A DNA stretch of 17,160 bases from Spirochaetia bacterium (lineage in GTDB: Bacteria; Spirochaetota; Spirochaetia; Treponematales; Breznakiellaceae). The position numbers were made by a program, and so were the translations under genes. Within the stretch, counting starts at the first letter, position 1. The number at the start of each line of letters is the position of its first letter. The notes under the pieces were generated by a model. The model did no database searches. It was not told where the DNA came from and worked only from the letters and a program-made list of their open reading frames with translations. Shown piece by piece: positions 4,293 to 17,160 of this stretch. The stretch covers positions 1 through 17,160 of the forward strand of contig BNVB01000054.1 of the NCBI GenBank assembly GCA_025997795.1, written 5' to 3'.

Positions 4293-4565
4293 TTATGCAT
4301 TTGCCCTATTATTATACTTCTTGGCATATAGATCCAATACCTCATTTATCATTGTTTGGTATTTCACCTTGTTTTTTTCTGCATATTTTTTAAAAAAATC
4401 AACACTGGTACTATTTAAAGTAATAGTGATTTTTACCTTAGGTTCTCTTTTTATGAGTTGTTCAGGCGGTGGCAAAAAGTCCGCTATTATTTCACCTTCC
4501 ATAATATTTTTTGATATGGTTTTAGGTGCATTAACGTACCTTGTTTTTTTGTTCATATTTTTCAT
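4293..4565 (-). CDS. brnA: BrnA-family antitoxin (type II TA), about 90 aa
   Basis: The location immediately downstream of and overlapping a BrnT gene supports the call. The C-terminus (KVKITITLNSTSVDFFKKYAEKNKVKYQTMINEVL) has the size and fold class of BrnA, a CopG/RHH-like family. The start was chosen at the ATG at 4563-4565 because of a strong Shine-Dalgarno sequence (GGAGGGAAGG) 4 nt upstream on the minus strand. The 105-aa ORF from 4610 would overlap brnT by 80 nt. Confidence 0.65.
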   Translation of the reverse strand: MKNMNKKTRYVNAPKTISKNIMEGEIIADFLPPPEQLIKREPKVKITITLNSTSVDFFKKYAEKNKVKYQTMINEVLDLYAKKYNNRANA

Positions 4566-4809
4566 ATCCTTCCCTCCAGTATCCCGCACCAAATATGCGG
4601 ATATTTTCATTTCTCATAGTAAATCTTACTGTTACTATGCCATTTCCATCATTTCCTATACAAAAAAATCTTTCCTCTTTTTTTGAATGTTTTTTATCTT
4701 TTATTATCACACGGTTTTTATCAAAAAATGCTCCTTGTACCGTTTCAAATGAGACATGGTGTTTCTCTATATTATCCAGATTCTTTTCTTCATCCCATTC
4801 AAAGGTCAT
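4531..4809 (-). CDS. brnT: BrnT-family toxin (DUF497 ribonuclease toxin), 92 aa
   Basis: The N-terminus MTFEWDEEKNLDNIEKHHVSFETVQGAFFD matches the BrnT signature (F-x-WD-x-x-K-x-x-N-x-x-KH-G/x-VSFEEA). The C-terminus RIFGAGYWRE is the typical RIIS-A-R motif region. The gene is followed by an antitoxin gene that overlaps it by 35 nt. Confidence 0.8.
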   Translation of the reverse strand: MTFEWDEEKNLDNIEKHHVSFETVQGAFFDKNRVIIKDKKHSKKEERFFCIGNDGNGIVTVRFTMRNENIRIFGAGYWREGYEKYEQKNKVR

Positions 4810-4955: not shown

Positions 4956-6230
4956 ATGGAAATCAATTGGAAAAAGAACACCGTACTTTTTTTAGCAGGA
5001 CAGGCTTTGTCGCTTTTTGGATCAACGGTGGTTCAATATGCCATTCTATGGCATATAACGCTTAAAACCCAATCGGGAACCATGATGACCGTCTTTGCCA
5101 TAGCCGGATTTATCCCCGCGTTTCTCATTTCGCCTTTTGGCGGCGTGTGGGCGGACAGGTTTAACCGAAAATATATTATCAACATAGCGGACGGAGGCAT
5201 CGCCCTTGCCAGTTTGATTGTGGCGGTTTTTTTATTTTTTGGATTTGATAATTTTGGCATTTTATTAATCTGCGCTGTGGCGCGTTCCTTTGGGCAGGGT
5301 GTTCAAAGCCCGGCGGTAGGGGCATTTATTCCGCAGATTGTACCCGAAGAACATTTAACCAAAATCAACGGTATACAAAGCAGTATATTTTCCTGTGTCA
5401 CCCTGACTTCTCCCATGCTCAGCGGCGCGCTTATGACTTTTGCGCCCCTGGAAGTGATGTTTTTGTTTGATGTGGTTACGGCCGCCGTTGGCATTGGTAT
5501 ACTGTTCTTTTTTGTAAAAGTGCCATCACTCGAAAAAAAGGAACAGGCGGAAATTTCCGTGGAAATTTCCGTGGAAAGTTCCGCGCAACTTTCCGTAGAA
5601 GGGCAAAAAGGAATATCCTATTTCCATGACTTGAAAGAGGGACTAATATATATCAAAAAACATGGATATGTTTTACGGCTCTGTATCTTTATGGCTCTCT
5701 TTATGATACTCGCTTCTCCTTCTGCTATGTTAACTCCTCTTCAGGTAACAAGAAAGTTTGGCGCCGAAGTTTGGCACCTCACCGCCATAGAAATGACTTT
5801 TTCAATCGGGATGCTGCTGGGAGGACTCCTCATAGGCGTTTGGGGAGGATTCAAAAACCGTGTCTATACCATGACTTTTGCTTTTCTGTTCTACGGCATG
5901 GGCATTATCTTGCTCGGGCTGGTAGCCAACTTTTGGATATATCTTGCTATTTTTGCATTTATCGGCATAACGATGCCGCTTTTCAATACGCCTGCTACGG
6001 TTTTGATACAAACAACCGTTGACCCCATGTATATGGGGAGGGTATTTTCCGTTATCGGCATGATATCCAGCGTTATGATGCCGACAGGAATGTTGATTTT
6101 TGGTCCCGTTGCGGATAAAGTGTCTATAGATATTCTTTTAATTGGAACAGGTATCGCATTGATGTTATTGGCTATTCCCTTTGTCGCCAATAAAACATTG
6201 CGTGAAATAGGGATAAGTCATTTAAAATAA
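4956..6230 (+). CDS. MFS (major facilitator superfamily) transporter, 424 aa
   Basis: The protein has 12 transmembrane segments in two 6-TM halves joined by a central cytoplasmic loop. The conserved motif GxxxDRxGRK-like sequence (GGVWADRFNRKYI) lies between TM2 and TM3. The ORF-track start at 4953 is a TTG. The ATG at 4956 is preferred. Confidence 0.85.
   Translation: MEINWKKNTVLFLAGQALSLFGSTVVQYAILWHITLKTQSGTMMTVFAIAGFIPAFLISPFGGVWADRFNRKYIINIADGGIALASLIVAVFLFFGFDNFGILLICAVARSFGQGVQSPAVGAFIPQIVPEEHLTKINGIQSSIFSCVTLTSPMLSGALMTFAPLEVMFLFDVVTAAVGIGILFFFVKVPSLEKKEQAEISVEISVESSAQLSVEGQKGISYFHDLKEGLIYIKKHGYVLRLCIFMALFMILASPSAMLTPLQVTRKFGAEVWHLTAIEMTFSIGMLLGGLLIGVWGGFKNRVYTMTFAFLFYGMGIILLGLVANFWIYLAIFAFIGITMPLFNTPATVLIQTTVDPMYMGRVFSVIGMISSVMMPTGMLIFGPVADKVSIDILLIGTGIALMLLAIPFVANKTLREIGISHLK
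5549..5596. repeat. Four-unit 12-bp in-frame tandem repeat (GGAAATTTCCGT x2 perfect plus 2 degenerate) inside the MFS central loop
   Basis: The sequence is GGAAATTTCCGT GGAAATTTCCGT GGAAAGTTCCGC GCAACTTTCCGT. It encodes EISV-EISV-ESSA-QLSV. Each perfect unit contains the 10-bp perfect palindrome GGAAATTTCC. Confidence 0.85.
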
Positions 6231-11874: not shown

Positions 11875-13413
11875 ATGCGCATAATCATTGTTGGTGCGGG
11901 ACTGGTGGGGACCCAGCTGGCCCGGCACTTGATCGAAGAAAAGCACGACATCGCCATTATTGAGGCAAACGAAGAACGGGCCCGCCATGTGTCCAACCGG
12001 CTTGACTGCATGGTACTCCAGGACGAGGGCAATTCCATCAACGCACTGGAAGAAGCGGGTATTGCCAAAGCAGAAGCCCTTATCTGCGTTACCGATTCTG
12101 ATGAAGTAAATATGATTATCTGCGGCCTGGCTTCGCGGTACCCCAAGCTGCTTAAAATTGCCCGGGTACGGAACGATGAATATGTACGGCGGAATTTTCA
12201 AAACCAGGTGGAAGCAGGGGCGCCGCCCATGGGAATCGATTACTTTGTTCATCCCGATGTGGAAGCGGCCCGGTCCGCCCTGGATGCCATAGAACACGGG
12301 GCCATTGGCAACATTCTTTCCTTTGCCGGAAGTCCCTACGAACTGGGAACCATCGACGTGGCGGCCCATTCCGCCTTTGACGGCCTTACCCTTAAAGATT
12401 TCAGGACAATCCTTGAAGGCGAAAGCCTTATCACCCTTGTAGAACGAAAGGGCAAAAGTTTTCTTCCCACCGGTTCCACAAAACTCCAGGCGGATGACCG
12501 GATCTATCTGCTTGCCAAAGAAGAGGAGTTAAACGAAGGTTTTAAACTTGCGGGCCGTTCAGAAAAACCAATCCACAAAATAGGCATTGTGGGCGGCGGA
12601 CGGCTTGGTTCCCTTATTGCCGCAGGACTGTTAAGCAAAGAACGGCGTAAACCCAATGAAGCGGCCGGTTCCGGAATGGATGCGGCCGGTGGTTTTGAAG
12701 CGGATGGAACAGAAAGAAAAAAAGCCAGGGGCTTCTTTTCTTTTTTAAAGACGCTCGTTCCCCGGGGTTTCAAAAAAGTGCTTATCATTGAACAGGATTA
12801 TGGAATCTGCAAGGATTTGGCCGCCCGTTTTCCCGATGCGTTAATTCTAAACGAAGATATTTCCGACGAAAGTTTTGTAGCCGAAGAACATATTGACGAT
12901 CTGGATCTTATCGTTACCGCCACGGATCTTCAGGAACTCAACATTATAACTGCAGTGTACCTTAAATCCCGCGGTGTAACCCGGACCATCGCCATGGTAA
13001 CCGGATCGGGTTATGCCGCCATTGCACGGCAGCTGGGAGTAGATGTGGTAATTCCCATGAAAGATGTGGTGGTCGATTCAATTCTTTCAAAATTGATGGG
13101 CGGCGGCGTAAAGGGAGTACACCGCCTGGGAGACGGCACTGTGGGAATTCTGGAAATTGATATAAACCCCGGTTCCCAGCCGGAGGGTAAATCGCTTAAG
13201 GACTTCCACCTGCCCGAGGGCGCGCTTGTAATGCTGGTAAACCGCGGCGTGGAAGTTGACTTTATTCCCCGGGGCGGTTATGTATACACCGCCGGCGACC
13301 GTATTCTTCTTATTGCCCGCAACGGAAGCGAAATGGACATTGAAAGAATTTTTAGCAGCCCTGTTAAAGGTACGTCTGTCAAAGACGAACCTGCCAAAGG
13401 AAACGCCAAATGA
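11875..13413 (+). CDS. trkA: Trk potassium uptake system NAD-binding subunit TrkA (tandem KTN-KTC-KTN-KTC)
   Basis: The N-terminus is MRIIIVGAGLVGTQLARHL (a GxGxxG Rossmann motif). A second Rossmann domain begins KIGIVGGGRLGSLIAAGL. Each Rossmann domain is followed by a TrkA-C domain. A roughly 50-aa low-complexity insert follows the second GxGxxG. The ATG lies 3 nt after the aroA stop. Confidence 0.9.
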   Translation: MRIIIVGAGLVGTQLARHLIEEKHDIAIIEANEERARHVSNRLDCMVLQDEGNSINALEEAGIAKAEALICVTDSDEVNMIICGLASRYPKLLKIARVRNDEYVRRNFQNQVEAGAPPMGIDYFVHPDVEAARSALDAIEHGAIGNILSFAGSPYELGTIDVAAHSAFDGLTLKDFRTILEGESLITLVERKGKSFLPTGSTKLQADDRIYLLAKEEELNEGFKLAGRSEKPIHKIGIVGGGRLGSLIAAGLLSKERRKPNEAAGSGMDAAGGFEADGTERKKARGFFSFLKTLVPRGFKKVLIIEQDYGICKDLAARFPDALILNEDISDESFVAEEHIDDLDLIVTATDLQELNIITAVYLKSRGVTRTIAMVTGSGYAAIARQLGVDVVIPMKDVVVDSILSKLMGGGVKGVHRLGDGTVGILEIDINPGSQPEGKSLKDFHLPEGALVMLVNRGVEVDFIPRGGYVYTAGDRILLIARNGSEMDIERIFSSPVKGTSVKDEPAKGNAK

Positions 13414-14864
13414 AACGGCGGGCCATGTTCCGGCTCCTTACGCTGCTTGTTTCGCTCGTTGCCCTTTCCATGGCCGCGCCCCTCCTCTTGGCTTTGTGCC
13501 TTGGTGAAATTGCCATGGCAAAGGCCTTTGGCCTTACCATGACAGCGGCGCTGATTTTTTCCGCGCCGGTGCTTATCGCCACCCGGTCCCAGCCCATACG
13601 TTTTACCGCCTCCGATGGTTTTCTCCTGGTGTTTCTTGCCTGGGTCGGCGCCTGCCTTTTGGGCGCTGTTCCCTATTATGTATCGCAGTATATTCCGGAT
13701 TTAACAAATGCCGTGTATGAAAGCGTGTCGGGCTTTACCACCACCGGTTCTTCTATTATCACCGACCTTAACGTTATGCCCCGGTCGCTGATCTTTTGGC
13801 GGGCAGAAACTCACTGGCTGGGGGGCATGGGAATGGTGGTACTTACCGTGGCCCTGCTTCCTCTTTTGGGAGTCGGCGGTTTCCAGCTTCTTAAAGCGGA
13901 AACCCCCGGACCCGGCAAAGAACGGATAACCCCAAAAATTACCGAAACGGCAAAGCTGCTGTGGCTTATGTATATTATCCTTACTGCGGTAGAAGCGCTG
14001 TTCCTTTTTCTGGCGGGAATGAATGTTTTTGATGCGGTAATCCACGCATTTTCCACCATAGCCACCGGCGGTTTTAGTTCCCGGAACGAAAGCATCGCCT
14101 ACTATCAATCGCCCTCCATAGAATGGATCATCACGATTTTTATGATCATTGCGGGTTTTAATTTTTCACTTCTTTTTAGGATCATCCAGCGGAAGTTCCG
14201 GGAAGTGTACTACAACAGCGAAGCCCGGGCCTATATGTTGATCATCCTTGCCGCCGGAATCCTAACGGCCCTTTCCCTTAGTGCAAGCGGTTCCGCCGAT
14301 GCCCCCGACACAGAAACCACCCTTAGGCACAGTTTTTTTTATACTGCCAGCATTCTTACCACTACGGGATTTACTGCGGCGGGACACAAGCTGTGGCCCG
14401 CCCTGGCCCAGGGGATACTTTTTCTTCTTATGTGGATAGGCGGCTGTTCGGGGTCCACCGCCGGGGGTATCAAGGTAGTGCGCCATGTGGTGCTTTTTAA
14501 ACAAATGAAAAATGAAATGCGAAAAATCATTTTTCCCCGGGGTGTTTTTTCCGTCCGGCTTAACAATAAAGTTGGCCGGAAAGATGTGGTCTACGGCGTA
14601 TCGGGATTTATTTTTCTCTACCTTATTCTAATTGCACTGGGGGCCCTGGTTACCGCCAGCTCGGGCCTGGATTTTTATTCTTCCTTTAGCGTTTCACTTA
14701 TCAGCATTGGCAACGTAGGCCTGGGACTGGGGCAGATAGGATCACCGGCGGTTTTTTTGGCCCTTCCGGGTTATGTAAAGTGGTTTCTTTCCTTCCTTAT
14801 GATAGCTGGACGGCTGGAACTGTGGACAGCGCTGGTTTTTTTAACCAGGGATTATTGGCGGTAA
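13410..14864 (+). CDS. trkH: Trk potassium uptake system membrane subunit TrkH
   Basis: Selectivity-filter-like glycine motifs recur at the ends of the re-entrant loops (SGFTTTGSSI, TGGFSSRNES, TTTGFTAAG, IGNVGLGLGQ). The protein is polytopic. The start codon overlaps the trkA stop (ATGA at 13410-13413). Confidence 0.9.
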   Translation: MKRRAMFRLLTLLVSLVALSMAAPLLLALCLGEIAMAKAFGLTMTAALIFSAPVLIATRSQPIRFTASDGFLLVFLAWVGACLLGAVPYYVSQYIPDLTNAVYESVSGFTTTGSSIITDLNVMPRSLIFWRAETHWLGGMGMVVLTVALLPLLGVGGFQLLKAETPGPGKERITPKITETAKLLWLMYIILTAVEALFLFLAGMNVFDAVIHAFSTIATGGFSSRNESIAYYQSPSIEWIITIFMIIAGFNFSLLFRIIQRKFREVYYNSEARAYMLIILAAGILTALSLSASGSADAPDTETTLRHSFFYTASILTTTGFTAAGHKLWPALAQGILFLLMWIGGCSGSTAGGIKVVRHVVLFKQMKNEMRKIIFPRGVFSVRLNNKVGRKDVVYGVSGFIFLYLILIALGALVTASSGLDFYSSFSVSLISIGNVGLGLGQIGSPAVFLALPGYVKWFLSFLMIAGRLELWTALVFLTRDYWR

Positions 14865-14900
14865 GGGAAAGGCAATGGGGGCTTAGCTTTTCTCTTGACA
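14824..14900. repeat. Direct repeat copy 1: the last 12 codons of trkH, its stop and a TTGACA -35 element (core 14829-14884 plus 12 extra bp plus TTGACA)
   Basis: The sequence GGACAGCGCTGGTTTTTTTAACCAGGGATTATTGGCGGTAAGGGAAAGGCAATGGGGGCTT[agcttttctctt]GACA matches 15625-15690. The differences are three substitutions, one 1-nt indel and one 12-nt indel. Confidence 0.9.
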
Positions 14901-14924
14901 TTTTTGTCCTATTTAAGGTATCAT
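14895..14924 (+). promoter_or_regulatory. Sigma70-like promoter (TTGACA, 18 nt, TATCAT) driving the inserted two-gene cassette
   Basis: TTGACA at 14895-14900 is followed by an 18-nt spacer and TATCAT at 14919-14924. This is about 30 nt upstream of the orf57 ATG at 14956, which has a G-rich ribosome-binding site (GGGGGTAGATAG). Confidence 0.5.
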
Positions 14925-14955
14925 ATAAAGTATCACCATTGCCGGGGGTAGATAG

Positions 14956-15129
14956 ATGGACTTTATTATAACTCAAGAGGATTATAACGAATATCTCTCT
15001 AAAAAGAGCGCCATCAACAATGAACGGATACGCCCGGATGATCAGAGCTTTTTTGATGCGCTTATGACGGTAGACATGAAAAACGACCCGGACGGAAAAC
15101 GGGCCATAGAGATTATTCGGGAATTATAA
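14956..15129 (+). CDS. Hypothetical small acidic protein (57 aa), first gene of the inserted cassette
   Basis: The ORF is absent from the supplied track, which appears to have a 60-aa cut-off. The translation is MDFIITQEDYNEYLSKKSAINNERIRPDDQSFFDALMTVDMKNDPDGKRAIEIIREL*. Its net charge is about -5. The TAA stop at 15127-15129 lies 1 nt before the next ATG, so the two genes are translationally coupled. The region is AT-rich, at about 35% GC. Confidence 0.5.
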   Translation: MDFIITQEDYNEYLSKKSAINNERIRPDDQSFFDALMTVDMKNDPDGKRAIEIIREL

Positions 15130-15130
15130 A

Positions 15131-15607
15131 ATGGCAAATACCCCTGAAGAATTCCCGGTATTTACCGATCTTGATATGCGGCAGATTACGATTCTTTCTT
15201 CCCGTTTCCGTCTTTACCTAAAAGACTTTGAGATTAATAACGGACTATCCGGCATCATTGCGTCTCCCCCTGTTATAGCAGAAATATGCGAACGCATTGA
15301 AAAAAGACGGATATATTTTCATATCTTCTATAATTGCAAAATGGGCGAGTTAAACGAGGGATCTCTTATGTGTTTCTGGATATTGAAATTAATGCCGTTT
15401 TCACATCTGTCTATTCCCTTGAACGAACTCAACGCAAAAATAGCGTTATATTTGCTCAATAACGTGCTGATATATCATGCAAAGAAGAAAGGCAAAAAAG
15501 TAAATATTTCCAGCGAGTTATACGAGCGTCTTTATTATTCATTCCGCTTTAGAGATATAAGCAAAGAAGCAATTATGGCATTGTCTGAAAGTCTTATAAT
15601 CCAATGA
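15131..15607 (+). CDS. Hypothetical protein (158 aa), second gene of the inserted cassette, with no recognisable family
   Basis: The ORF is clean and starts 1 nt after orf57. The protein is net basic with a Lys-rich patch (HAKKKGKKVN), mostly alpha-helical by composition, and has no transmembrane segment. It contains an R-x4-H motif (RRIYFHIFY) reminiscent of HEPN, but this is very weak evidence. Confidence 0.55.
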   Translation: MANTPEEFPVFTDLDMRQITILSSRFRLYLKDFEINNGLSGIIASPPVIAEICERIEKRRIYFHIFYNCKMGELNEGSLMCFWILKLMPFSHLSIPLNELNAKIALYLLNNVLIYHAKKKGKKVNISSELYERLYYSFRFRDISKEAIMALSESLIIQ

Positions 15608-15624
15608 GCCTCCCCGCCCTAAAG

Positions 15625-15690
15625 GGACGGCGCTGGTTTTTTTAACCAGAGATTATTGGCGGTAAGGGAAAAACAATTGGGGGCTTGACA
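15625..15690. repeat. Direct repeat copy 2 (trkH 3'-end coding sequence plus TTGACA), downstream of the cassette
   Basis: GGACGGCGCTGGTTTTTTTAACCAGAGATTATTGGCGGTAAGGGAAAAACAATTGGGGGCTTGACA still encodes ...TALVFLTRDYWR*. The only change inside the coding part is a synonymous AGG to AGA. The upstream frame is closed by a TAA at 15597. Confidence 0.9.
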
Positions 15691-15713
15691 AATCTGTTAA
15701 TAGTAAGTATACT
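15685..15713 (+). promoter_or_regulatory. Sigma70-like promoter (TTGACA, 17 nt, TATACT) for the SRPBCC-marR operon
   Basis: TTGACA at 15685-15690 is followed by a 17-nt spacer and TATACT at 15708-15713. An AGGAG site at 15734-15738 sits 9 nt before the ATG at 15748. Confidence 0.5.
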
Positions 15714-15747: not shown

Positions 15748-16161
15748 ATGGAACTGCAATTTACACTTGAAGTGAACGCCCCTGCGGAGAAAATTTGGCC
15801 TTATTACGCCGATCCCGCAAAACGTTATGTCTGGGAAGATGATTTAGAAGACATAACGTTCGATGGTGAGGTCAAGACTGGCACAACGGGCAGTATGAAA
15901 CTGAAAGAAATGCCCAATATGCCGTTTACCTTAACAGAAGTTATCCCAAACGCTTCTTATTGCGACAGGACGGATGTTCCGGGAATGGGGAGCCTCTATT
16001 TTGGGCATAAAATCCTGCGGGAAAACAGCAAGACCTATATCCGGCACAGCGTCCGGCTGGAAAAAGAGAACGCATGCGAAGATGACCTTGGCTTTCTTAG
16101 CGGCGTGTTCTCCGATGTACCCGGTGCGGCTTTGAAAATCAAAAGGGAGGTTGAGAAATAG
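15748..16161 (+). CDS. SRPBCC (START/Bet v1/polyketide-cyclase-like) ligand-binding domain protein, 137 aa
   Basis: The N-terminus MELQFTLEVNAPAEKIWPYYADPAKRYVWEDDLEDITFDG is the typical SRPBCC opening (a beta strand followed by helix 1). The protein is about 140 aa long. The start was chosen at the internal ATG, which has an AGGAG ribosome-binding site. The hydrophobic N-terminal extension in the ORF track is a read-through of the promoter region. Confidence 0.75.
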   Translation: MELQFTLEVNAPAEKIWPYYADPAKRYVWEDDLEDITFDGEVKTGTTGSMKLKEMPNMPFTLTEVIPNASYCDRTDVPGMGSLYFGHKILRENSKTYIRHSVRLEKENACEDDLGFLSGVFSDVPGAALKIKREVEK

Positions 16162-16614
16162 GTGGAATTTCCCTCTCTTAAATTCAAAAAGGACTCCGAG
16201 ACTTCAACCGGATTGGTTTTTATTCGTGTTTACAATAAATGGCACTCCACAATAAAAAACGCATTGCGGGAAGTTGGTATAACTCACCCGCAATTCGTAG
16301 TTATGACGGTGCTGAATTTTCTGTGCCAGTCGGACGAATATGTGACACAGGTAAATATCGCAAAAATGGCGGATATGGATGTTATGTCCGTTTCACAAAT
16401 CATCCGGGGCCTGGAAGAAAAGGGGTTTTTGAAACGGGCGGTTAATCCGAACGATACCAGAGCAAATGCCGTGTGGCTCTTGGAAAAAGGACAGGAAGCA
16501 ATCAAACGGGTCTTGCCAATCGTTGAAAAGATAGACGATGAATTTTTTGGCGTTTTATCAGACAATGAGCATTATTTTAGGGATTGCTTACACAAATTGA
16601 TAGCTTCTGAATAA
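16162..16614 (+). CDS. MarR family transcriptional regulator
   Basis: A winged helix-turn-helix is present (QFVVMTVLNFLCQSDEYVTQVNIAKMADMDVMSVSQIIRGLEEKGFLKR...DTRANAVWLLEKGQEAI). A GTG start directly abuts the SRPBCC stop, and an AAAAGGGAGG site lies upstream. Confidence 0.85.
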   Translation: MEFPSLKFKKDSETSTGLVFIRVYNKWHSTIKNALREVGITHPQFVVMTVLNFLCQSDEYVTQVNIAKMADMDVMSVSQIIRGLEEKGFLKRAVNPNDTRANAVWLLEKGQEAIKRVLPIVEKIDDEFFGVLSDNEHYFRDCLHKLIASE

Positions 16615-16762: not shown

Positions 16763-17050
16763 ATGAGCGAATTGCGGTTTATTTGGGACGAAAACAAGAA
16801 TCTTGACAACATCAAAAAGCATGGGGTGAGCTTTGAAGAAGCCTCCGCCGCTTGTTTAGACCCGAATTGTGTTAGAATTTTTGATGAAACTCATAGTATA
16901 AATGAGGATAGATGGATTTTGCTTGGCAGGGTACGGGAAACCGTACTGTTCGTGGTTGAAACCGAGCAGGATACTGATACAATCAGAATTATATCAGCCC
17001 GGCCAGCCACCAAAAGAGAGAAGGAACGGTATTATGGCAATGGTTACTAA
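16763..17050 (+). CDS. brnT: BrnT-family toxin (DUF497), second divergent paralog in the window
   Basis: The N-terminus is MSELRFIWDENKNLDNIKKHGVSFEEASAACLDP. The C-terminal motif is IRIISARPATKREKERY. The gene is followed by an overlapping antitoxin gene. Confidence 0.85.
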   Translation: MSELRFIWDENKNLDNIKKHGVSFEEASAACLDPNCVRIFDETHSINEDRWILLGRVRETVLFVVETEQDTDTIRIISARPATKREKERYYGNGY

Positions 17051-17160
17051 AAAAGTTATAGAAATTCTGCCGCTTTCGGTGGAAGCGGTACAACGGCTGG
17101 ATAAACTCAAGGGCATAAAAGATGAGGATATAGACACCTCTGATATGCCGGAACTCACGG
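17034..17160 (+). CDS. brnA: BrnA-family antitoxin, N-terminal part (3' end outside window)
   Basis: The ATG at 17034 overlaps the brnT stop by 17 nt, and an AGAAGGAA ribosome-binding site lies upstream. The translation MAMVTKKVIEILPLSVEAVQRLDKLKGIKDEDIDTSDMPELT matches the BrnA N-terminal DxDIDxSDIPELT-type motif. Confidence 0.7.
   Translation, partial: MAMVTKKVIEILPLSVEAVQRLDKLKGIKDEDIDTSDMPELT

Follow-up and report, generated by a model that had tools for sequence, protein, structure and literature searches.

Two copies of the 3' end of trkH bracket a pair of small genes in a 17,160-nt stretch of DNA from a Spirochaetia bacterium (contig BNVB01000054.1; the whole stretch is referred to below as the window), which raises the question of how the pair entered this position and how the repeat came to flank it.

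Repeats, junctions and insert at the trkH locus

The direct repeat consists of copy 1 (14824-14884, plus strand, 61 nt) and copy 2 (15625-15686, plus strand, 62 nt), which are approximately 8% diverged. An alignment with one indel contains 57 identical columns of 62 and four mismatches, and an ungapped repeat search recovers 58 nt at 91%. A 42-nt core pattern, with up to three mismatches allowed, matches the 17-kb window at these two sites only and has no match in 200 shuffles, where none is expected by chance; the direct repeat described in the initial annotation is thus borne out. The pattern is also absent from all 122 other loci fetched, and across these loci and the window the repeat is a non-dispersed direct repeat of more than 30 bp. 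No known RNA element was found in the repeat, as the window has no Rfam match.

As originally proposed, both copies retain the TrkH C-terminal coding sequence, each encoding TALVFLTRDYWR followed by TAA. The single synonymous change reported earlier (AGG to AGA) is one of two, the other being ACA/ACG, and both are synonymous. As a gauge of selection on the second copy, the mismatches between the repeats of another locus, L070, are distributed over the three codon positions as 14/8/17; the window offers only these two coding differences. The 8% divergence with synonymous-only coding differences would likewise be compatible with the import of a copy from another strain.

Copy 1 comprises the functional 3' end of trkH (TALVFLTRDYWR*; the last 41 nt of the gene, 14824-14864) and 20 nt of intergenic sequence, and contains the hairpin CTGGTT-TTTTT-AACCAG (DNA fold z = -2.8). 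It is followed by a 10-nt filler, AGCTTTTCTC (14885-14894, plus strand), which is absent from copy 2. Pairing of the filler with 14863-14873 gives an 11-bp hairpin that precedes a T-run (RNA fold z = -3.8), a possible new terminator for trkH; no comparable RNA fold is found at copy 2. The right junction contains the filler GCCTCCCCGCCCTAAAG (15608-15624, plus strand), as read from the sequence, which has no homology to the nearest cassette relative (L127). Copy 2 is an untranslated relic of the trkH 3' end with intergenic sequence that enters the -35 box of the downstream operon, and the relic (15625-15665) should not be called as a functionally meaningful gene fragment in annotation. The earlier description let both copies end in a duplicated TTGACA and the downstream genes use a duplicated promoter, neither of which agrees with these junctions: the 10 unrelated bases of AGCTTTTCTC part copy 1 from the TTGACA at 14895-14900, and only the TT of the TTGACA at 15685-15690 falls inside copy 2. 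Neither promoter-like site is therefore a copy of the other.

Upstream of the insertion site lies a conserved block that includes trkA (11875-13413, plus strand; Pfam TrkA_N 3.9e-38, TrkA_C 9.6e-21) and trkH (13410-14864, plus strand; Pfam TrkH 2.3e-69). Downstream, a promoter-like site (15685-15713, plus strand; TTGACA-17-TATACT) precedes an SRPBCC-like gene (15748-16161, plus strand), which matches Pfam Polyketide_cyc2 weakly (0.003), and marR (16162-16614, plus strand; Pfam MarR 2.3e-8). As the trkH 3' end is present on both sides of the insert, trkH is complete and the operon downstream has not lost the region that precedes it. The gene order SBP-EPSPS-trkA-trkH is common to relatives L086, L088, L123 and L124, and the nearest TrkH homologues are just 75-78% identical. 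In five of five relatives the synteny stops right after trkH, the downstream neighbour differs in each, and in none is trkH followed by the SRPBCC-like gene and marR. A search with TrkH homologues and five context look-ups in the databases searched did not find an empty trkH site, and duplication at insertion is therefore proposed for the window by analogy with other loci. A duplication followed by capture of the cassette, the alternative raised in the initial annotation, would leave the same structure.

The segment between the repeats (14885-15624) is 740 nt long. Its GC content is 38.5%, compared with 51.3% for trkH, 47.6% for the SRPBCC-like gene and 41.5% for marR; the insert is thus poorer in GC than trkH, as had been noted, at these values rather than the 35% and 55% first given. 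A sigma-70-like promoter (14895-14924, plus strand; TTGACA-18-TATCAT), whose TTGACA box has the same relative place in cassettes elsewhere, and two open reading frames, ORF1 and ORF2, lie wholly between the repeats. The two frames (14956-15129 and 15131-15607) are translationally coupled by TAA-A-ATG, and no integrase or transposase family is present in any ORF of the window; both observations agree with the initial annotation. The anatomy of repeat and insert, which is far below 20 kb and carries no mobility genes among the window ORFs, is directly evident in the window.

A putative toxin-antitoxin cassette at many unrelated sites

ORF1 (14956-15129, plus strand, 57 aa) has its counterpart directly upstream of, and coupled to, the ORF2 homologue (in the window 15131-15607, plus strand, 158 aa) in nearly all loci, and these two small co-directional genes are kept together at more than 100 loci. 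Neither has a match in Pfam, NCBIfam, PHROG or PADLOC. ORF2 nevertheless has the Fic/Doc fold, and with 546 homologues and no Pfam model it represents a large, new and unannotated Doc-like family. The pair resembles Phd/Doc of phage P1 in its operon of two genes, of which the upstream one is small and the toxin has ~125-160 aa, and in the H-x-F-x-N of ORF2, which occupies the loop that contains HxFx(D/N) in Doc. It differs from Phd/Doc in that ORF2 has no Pfam Fic/Doc match, no match in a PDB profile search and no sequence-level match to Doc, and in that ORF1 has no Phd/YefM match; by sequence, the two proteins are not members of Fic/Doc and Phd/YefM. Additionally, the catalytic motif HxFx(D/N)(A/G)NKR is only partly present in ORF2, where H64 and F66 are near-invariant and are accompanied by N68 (N or D in relatives) in H-I-F-Y-N, whereas a conserved CKMGELNEG replaces the (A/G)NKR of Doc in a loop of low model confidence. 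The Doc-like fold of ORF2 is established, its toxin activity is putative, and ORF1 would act as the antitoxin.

At least 12 pairs of cassettes are 86-94% identical in DNA and reside in contexts without other similarity (tblastx). The copies are homologous from close to the -35 box to 0-6 nt past the stop codon. Members of the family occur in metagenome-assembled genomes of termite-gut Spirochaetia, Fibrobacterota, Planctomycetota and Holosporales (four phyla), as well as in the isolate Treponema primitia ZAS-10. Judged from these comparisons, the cassette is a discrete mobile unit that occupies many unrelated sites. The earlier proposal of an element inserted at the 3' end of trkH is thus upheld as to a segment that behaves as a horizontally acquired insert and whose family recurs at many unrelated sites, and it is not upheld as to an attL/attR origin.

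Such sharp homology boundaries around a small discrete unit would be expected of a transposon, a MITE or an integron cassette, in which the repeat would be a target-site duplication or an attC; chromosomal integrons commonly carry toxin-antitoxin cassettes. This explanation is highly improbable. The repeat is trkH coding sequence, and the window contains neither intI nor a transposase. Terminal inverted repeats or conserved ends are lacking, and the length of the duplication is variable and far above the target-site duplications of transposases, which speaks against a transposon or MITE; the homology ends at the stop codon (0-6 nt past it), so that no attC travels with the cassette. Equally improbable is an assembly artefact in which the contig joins two strain variants via a common trkH 3' end. 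The DNA comes from the draft genome of an uncultured termite-gut bacterium, and the divergence between the copies is typical of strain variation; against this, copy 2 is joined leftward to cassette DNA, which requires at least one real molecule with the order cassette then trkH end, and many independent assemblies, as well as the genome of an isolate, show the same architecture.

The inserts contain 3-580 nt of extra unrelated DNA. In L051, a 30-codon 5' gene fragment is fused to the right repeat, and its donor context was not found among the loci. A candidate second Doc-like cassette in L009 was rejected (hhalign probability 0.2), the upstream pair there being a retropepsin-like pair. A C-rich motif is enriched after the cassette stop codon, relative to a background that is mostly coding sequence.

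Flanking repeats and the origin of the duplication

Flanking direct repeats are present at approximately 21 of approximately 101 cassette loci (15 of 71 loci, together with 6 among 33 genome loci, three of which repeat metagenome contigs). These repeats are locus-specific and vary from 18 nt to more than 1 kb. Random positions in the same loci have such repeats in 3 of 170 cases (Fisher p = 1.3e-6), and similar-sized neighbouring genes have them in 10 of 148 (odds ratio 3.6, p = 0.0015); when only short repeats are considered, 17 of 101 cassette loci compare with 10 of 148 neighbouring genes (p = 0.02). The recurrence of locus-specific flanking repeats at cassettes is clear, and their enrichment over neighbouring genes is modest. 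The repeats are composed of local sequence, namely gene 3' ends, terminators, promoters or the 3' half of a tRNA; most occur exactly twice, and 8 of 15 duplicated segments are strong hairpin formers. No common core is found among the flanking repeats at the ~21 loci.

The long repeats at L009, L040 and L020, and perhaps L070, are whole tandem paralogue genes that are probably older than the insertion, and the repeats at L051, L064, L117 and L053 are multi-copy, REP-like or array-like. A pre-existing local repeat, arising from a tandem duplication or a paralogue relic, could have received the cassette by a chance insertion or substitution between its copies. 'Chance insertions between repeated sequences' are a class in Furuta et al. 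(PMC2853133), and the whole tandem paralogue surface-protein genes that flank the cassette in L009, L040 and L020, the three copies of the L051 repeat and a tandem 20-nt duplication at the trkH stop region in two trkH relatives all agree with such an origin. For the window, this origin is nonetheless quite unlikely: flanking repeats are enriched at the cassette over both random positions and neighbouring genes, trkH is single-copy in the window and in relatives, the repeat itself occurs only twice, and the target is single-copy in T. primitia strains without the cassette.

The latter comparison involves the cassette of T. primitia ZAS-10 (L111), which is flanked by a duplicated tRNA-Gly 3' end in the form of a 38-nt perfect partial tRNA repeat. 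The sister strains ZAS-1 and ZAS-2 lack both the cassette and a partial tRNA copy and carry a single tRNA-Gly(ccc). Because the MatE gene of the sister strains is missing from ZAS-10, this case is a substitution rather than a clean insertion. The tRNA target is what an integrase would use. Targeting of tRNA genes as a general rule was considered and rejected, as the cassette adjoins a tRNA in only 1 of 60 loci scanned.

The ZAS-10 locus speaks for site-specific integration, since a family member at a tRNA-Gly 3' end with a 38-nt perfect partial repeat is a classical integrase signature. Applied to the window, the 61-nt repeats would be attL and attR of a miniature element that uses a tyrosine integrase encoded elsewhere, either as a cis-mobilisable element or as the final trace of a prophage or island that has decayed, and that brought its own trkH 3' end to restore the gene. 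The target is a gene 3' end that contains a hairpin, the copies differ by 8% with synonymous coding differences, as if one copy had travelled with the element, a distant homologue lies beside a serine recombinase in a phage-like contig, and the extra DNA between cassette and repeats could be remnants of an island. However, repeats without a shared core that extend from 18 nt to more than 1 kb at ~21 loci would require many different integrases, all with the same cargo. No integrase is present in the window, in the contexts shown or in the larger repeat-bounded candidates, and only 10 and 17 nt of the insert lie outside the promoter and genes, which leaves no room for arm sites. Neither decayed islands of intermediate size nor larger repeat-bounded islands with integrases surround the cassette in the 35 loci with long flanks (at least 2.5 kb). 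For these reasons (dissimilar repeats, no integrase in or near the inserts and no space for arm sites), the attL/attR-like duplication of the initial annotation is unlikely.

The structure is probably best explained by the insertion of an addiction cassette between the trkH stop codon and the next promoter with a target duplication of ~61 nt, in which case the segment 14885-15624, acquired horizontally, is a self-contained addiction cassette of two genes with putative toxin and antitoxin roles. Its landing site would be the narrow space that separates the stop codon of trkH from the next operon's promoter, and a direct duplication of the ~61-nt target would have accompanied the insertion. Copy 1 would thereby leave trkH complete, and copy 2 would be the original sequence before the downstream promoter. 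The loci described above suggest that the insertion itself may have created the duplication. The duplication could be a by-product of recombination or replication that joins the ends of an incoming fragment to staggered positions, with no transposase or site-specific integrase. Candidate routes are integration across two sister chromosome copies, template switching at a hairpin-rich site, and Campbell-type integration of a circularised fragment that bears homology to the target. In compact functional junctions, only insertions that preserve both sides would survive, which would favour the duplicated form. The persistence of the structure may be explained by addiction, since the cassette would be lost by recombination between the repeats, which would leave the cell open to the stable putative toxin.

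A wider and more tentative reading, which as a whole is possible but doubtful, is that small addiction cassettes, toxin-antitoxin pairs besides restriction-modification systems, spread across phyla by a recombinase-free insertion-duplication. A fragment extending from promoter to stop codon would join staggered positions at hairpin-rich gene boundaries and give a duplication of 20 nt to more than 1 kb, and the toxin would protect this duplication from collapse. The repeats would also let the cassette excise as a circle, which could re-enter naive genomes by homologous recombination. If this reading is true, addiction cassettes would lock in tandem duplications, including those of whole genes, and thereby seed paralogues.

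Comparison with known systems

How toxin-antitoxin cassettes move when they carry no mobility genes themselves has long been a gap, and their spread is usually credited to hitch-hiking on a plasmid, phage or transposon. Cis-mobilisable or integrase-less islands with attL/attR at gene 3' ends resemble the present locus in that repeats of a gene 3' end bracket a small recombinase-free cargo, and one member of the cassette family is located at a tRNA 3' end. They differ in that the cassette sites have no common core and a highly variable repeat length, no integrase was found in the window or the loci described above, and the insert is too small for arm sites.

Transformation can create tandem duplications (merodiploidy) via interchromatid integration (Johnston et al. 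2013, PMC3784515). This process and the insertion-duplication (Campbell-type) integration used in the laboratory are similar to the proposed routes in that incoming DNA which recombines with staggered positions on sister chromosomes ends up at the junction of a tandem duplication, and in that otherwise disruptive insertions can survive. The duplications in merodiploidy are 100-900 kb and depend on pre-existing repeats, whereas the cassette repeats are 18 nt to ~1 kb.

The class that matches best is 'insertion with long target duplication', to date a description of restriction-modification systems. For gene complexes of this kind, insertion with a long (variable) target duplication has been defined as a class (Nobusato et al. 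2000, Gene 259:99; Furuta, Abe and Kobayashi 2010, PMC2853133; PMC3874152), in which the repeats are tens to hundreds of bp and the target sequence is single-copy in empty genomes (PMC2853133). As in that class, a complete post-segregational-killing unit (here putative) that has no mobility genes lies between direct repeats, these repeats frequently overlap a neighbouring gene's 3' end, the insert's GC content is deviant, and flanking repeats are significantly commoner than for average genes (PMC2853133). The complete killer-plus-protector unit considered by Furuta and Kobayashi lies inside the insert of the window, with putative roles for both genes. A genome in which the site is empty also belongs to the definition of the class, and for this trkH locus the databases searched contain no close relative. 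The cargo of the window differs from that class in being a putative toxin-antitoxin pair of two proteins, whose toxin is Doc/Fic-like instead of a nuclease.

No report of this architecture for a toxin-antitoxin system was found in the literature searched. The family offers a tractable dataset, in which one cassette family occupies more than 100 independent sites in four phyla and one habitat, with locus-specific long target duplications at approximately one fifth of the sites. As the cargo is Doc/Fic-like and not a nuclease, the DNA-breakage explanation given for restriction-modification systems does not apply here, which makes addiction, or a route of host recombination or replication, a likelier common cause of the two kinds of insertion than cleavage of DNA by the cargo.

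The repeat-flanked cassette 3' of trkH

Reading of the sequence reveals a direct repeat at 14824-14884 and 15625-15686, in which 57 of 62 columns are identical with one indel, essentially at the coordinates proposed in the initial annotation; a repeat search of the window recovers its ungapped part as 58 nt at 91%. When copies were counted with a 42-nt core pattern (up to three mismatches tolerated), only two sites were found in the 17-kb window and none in shuffled sequences, which confirms the repeat, and the 122 other fetched loci contain no match. Copy 1 takes in the last 41 nt of trkH (Pfam 2.3e-69), including the stop codon, and copy 2, which lies outside any longer ORF, keeps the same 12 codons and stop with two synonymous changes (ACA/ACG and AGG/AGA). 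The 8% divergence between the copies, with synonymous coding changes only, fits either age or an origin of one copy in another strain. The TTGACA boxes had been taken as the ends of the repeat, but ten unrelated bases separate the box from copy 1, and just the first two bases of the other box lie inside copy 2. Because these boxes are mostly outside the repeat, the promoter-like sites at 14895-14924 and 15685-15713 differ and are not copies of each other. The GC contents, initially given as 35% for the insert and 55% for trkH, are 38.5% and 51.3%, and the downstream genes are also below trkH (SRPBCC gene, 47.6%; marR, 41.5%). As previously noted, the ORFs of the window include no member of an integrase or transposase family, and searches of the window for tRNA genes and Rfam families returned none.

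The insert carries ORF1 (14956-15129, 57 aa) and ORF2 (15131-15607, 158 aa), which are separated by one base; neither matches Pfam, PHROGs, PADLOC or NCBIfam. A protein collection contains 546 homologues of ORF2, none with a Pfam domain, and those with a named source are from termite-gut-type Spirochaetia, Treponema or Holosporales. An AlphaFold2 model of ORF2, built from a 32-sequence alignment, is predicted to be all-helical (mean pLDDT 81), and the top two Foldseek matches of this model are Doc entries with probabilities of 1.00 and 0.99. The residues H64 and F66 are nearly invariant and N68 is N or D in relatives; together they read H-I-F-Y-N in the loop expected to correspond to the Fic/Doc motif HxFx(D/N), and the rest of the motif differs. 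On the basis of the predicted fold, the pair is read as a distant Phd/Doc-like toxin-antitoxin cassette with putative activities, and ORF2 belongs to a large, unannotated, Doc-like family spread across phyla in termite guts. A second toxin-antitoxin pair is close by at 16763-17160: a BrnT toxin (Pfam 1.7e-26), then the beginning of an overlapping partner gene that is cut off by the contig end. From the end of trkH onward, the whole stretch resembles a series of small accessory modules.

The cassette as a mobile unit

The ORF1-ORF2 pair is found at more than 100 loci and never apart, in MAGs of Treponema/Spirochaetia, Fibrobacterota (Fibrimonadaceae, Chitinispirillales), Planctomycetota and Holosporales and in one isolate, Treponema primitia ZAS-10. 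At least 12 pairs of cassettes share 86-94% DNA identity in contexts that are otherwise dissimilar even by tblastx; their homology begins near the -35 box, 25-90 nt 5' of the ORF1 start, and stops 0-6 nt past the ORF2 stop codon. No terminal inverted repeats or conserved end motifs were found in the compared copies. Such sharp homology ends need not imply precise excision, as the overwriting of resident cassettes by homologous recombination inside their conserved sequence would produce them likewise. One contig (L048) contains two family cassettes in tandem, at 3-326 and 520-786. In an IMG/VR contig (L085, 1704-8336), a distant cassette homologue (39% identity) lies amid phage-type genes, including repressor-like regulators, a replication initiator, RusA and a serine recombinase/invertase; the cassette may travel from host to host on phages.

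An empty trkH site for the window was sought through TrkH homologues, the closest of which are 75-78% identical, and the contexts of five relatives, and none was found. The SBP-EPSPS-trkA-trkH block is kept in all five (L086, L087, L088, L123 and L124), and synteny stops right after trkH, which is followed by the contig end (two contigs), a convergent gene, a xanthine/uracil permease or a DDE_3 transposase; the SRPBCC-marR operon follows trkH in none. Because synteny ends there in every relative, the region 3' of trkH is a hot spot of variation. In two of these relatives (L088, 6460-6505; L124, about 5454-5500), the trkH stop region is duplicated in tandem as a 20-nt unit, CTTATTGGCGrTArGCCAAT occurring twice, 5 nt apart, with each copy forming a small hairpin. 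The duplication is a structural element or else the trace of an earlier event at this position.

The T. primitia strains provide a partial, not a clean, empty-site test for the family. ZAS-1 and ZAS-2 have a single tRNA-Gly(ccc) with neither the cassette nor a partial tRNA copy, whereas in ZAS-10 the tRNA is followed by about 220 nt, the cassette and then the tRNA 3' end once more, as a perfect 38-nt copy. The MatE gene present there in the sister strains is missing from ZAS-10, and the sequence just 3' of the tRNA differs in all three.

Flanking repeats and junctions across the family

The 800 nt upstream and 800 nt downstream of each cassette were compared on the same strand. Direct repeats of at least 36 bits are present at 15 of 71 loci, the window counted, and mismatched locus pairs never score above 28 bits; genome-derived loci (33 tested, three of which are the same contigs as metagenome loci) add 6 further cases. 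Repeats are rarer around pseudo-inserts placed elsewhere in the same loci (3/170; Fisher p = 1.3e-6) and around neighbouring genes of similar size (10/148; odds ratio 3.6, p = 0.0015), and with short repeats only the comparison of cassettes (17/101) with neighbouring genes gives p = 0.02. The neighbouring-gene control is conservative, since its positives include several toxin-type cassettes (CdiA_C-like, PIN and retropepsin-like pairs), and flanking repeats may be general for such cassettes. Other small toxin-type cassettes occur nearby, at L001:381-905, L010:3172-3645, L009:444-1134 and L121:4172-4636; they are CdiA_C-like, of PIN type, or formed by a retropepsin-like aspartyl protease and a small gene upstream of it. 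Short direct repeats also flank those of L001, L010 and L121, which suggests that the architecture extends beyond the Doc-like family.

The repeat sequence differs at each locus, ranges from 18 nt to about 1.4 kb, and has exactly two copies in most cases and several in a few. The repeated sequences are local and mark functional boundaries: the trkH 3' end in the window, an outer-membrane-protein gene 3' end with its terminator in L051, the 3' 34 nt of tRNA-Gly at the ZAS-10 locus (L111), promoters in L032 and L078, and hairpin-rich terminator regions in others; 8 of 15 duplicated segments fold at z <= -2.2. Among the longest cases, three or four consist of entire tandem paralogues encoding surface proteins, which are probably older than the cassette insertion. 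In L009 (1140-2565/3330-4748), L040 (2680-3759/4597-5691) and L020 (1-577/1523-2090), surface or lipoprotein-like paralogues (Big_2, Lcl_C) of 85-97% identity flank the cassette, which either entered between existing paralogues or marks a gene-duplication junction that it stabilises. The paralogue and multi-copy cases weaken the repeat count yet leave the pattern standing.

The cassette core is separated from the repeats by 3-580 nt of extra DNA not common to sister cassettes. In L051, this DNA (4483-4572) consists of the first 30 codons of another gene (MKTLWRIAKEAVRYKGW...); they overlap the stop codon of the cassette (TAATG) and adjoin the right repeat copy without a gap. They appear to stem from a former context and to have come along with the cassette, and a donor context was not found among the loci. 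The extra DNA of L079 and L010 is homologous to genes adjoining cassettes elsewhere. From these three loci, the inserted DNA is ragged-ended and able to carry pieces of its former context. The junctions show neither a shared sequence nor obvious microhomology. The fillers in the window are 10 nt (left) and 17 nt (right). At 14863-14896, base pairing between AAGGGAAAGGC of repeat copy 1 and GCTTTTCTCTT of the left filler gives an 11-bp hairpin with a T-run behind it (RNA fold z = -3.8). The corresponding region at copy 2 shows no such fold, and the hairpin may be a new trkH terminator made by the insertion. C-rich tracts (CCCCTC, CTCCCC) occur within 70 nt 3' of the cassette stop at 8 of 73 loci against 0.4-0.8 expected (window 15610-15619, L078, L026 and L009, for example), an enrichment that may be a generic intergenic feature because the background is mostly coding sequence.

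Routes of insertion and known systems

An insertion at the trkH 3' end that leaves this end on both sides, as initially suggested, is upheld, but the accompanying att-site reading is not, given the unrelated repeats of variable length and the lack of integrases in or near the inserts examined. At individual sites, integration by an integrase acting in trans is possible: the tRNA case of ZAS-10 resembles integrase-mediated integration, and gene 3' ends with hairpins are typical att sites. Such an enzyme leaves unexplained about 20 unrelated repeats of very different length, the absence of integrases from the window and the contexts examined, and the lack of decayed islands of intermediate size among the 35 loci with long flanks. 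A transposase with a fixed-length target duplication is excluded by the variable repeat lengths, and integron recombination is excluded in that no attC moves with the cassette.

In the explanation that we prefer, an incoming cassette-bearing fragment would have been joined to staggered positions of the trkH/SRPBCC junction or, equivalently, a circularised fragment with trkH-end homology would have entered through a single crossover. Both trkH and the downstream promoter would stay intact only in the duplicated outcome, and the Doc-like toxin would then select against loss of the cassette through recombination between the repeats. We regard this overall explanation as reasonably likely and have low confidence in any one particular molecular route. 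In pneumococcal transformation, integration across sister chromatids yields duplications with the incoming DNA at the junction and lets insertions persist that would otherwise be lethal (PMC3784515).

Insertion with long and variable target duplication is a class defined for restriction-modification systems, with a complete killer-protector unit, no mobility genes, deviant GC, and repeats of >30 bp that occur once in empty genomes and frequently extend over the 3' end of a neighbouring gene; its authors suggested DNA breakage by the restriction enzyme as the mechanism (PMC2853133; PMC3874152). In the literature searched, no classical toxin-antitoxin pair was reported with this architecture. 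The window matches this class in its putative killer-protector unit, lack of mobility genes, deviant GC and repeats of >30 bp that overlap a gene 3' end, and the trkH locus is probably a further example of a known insertion mode with a new kind of cargo.
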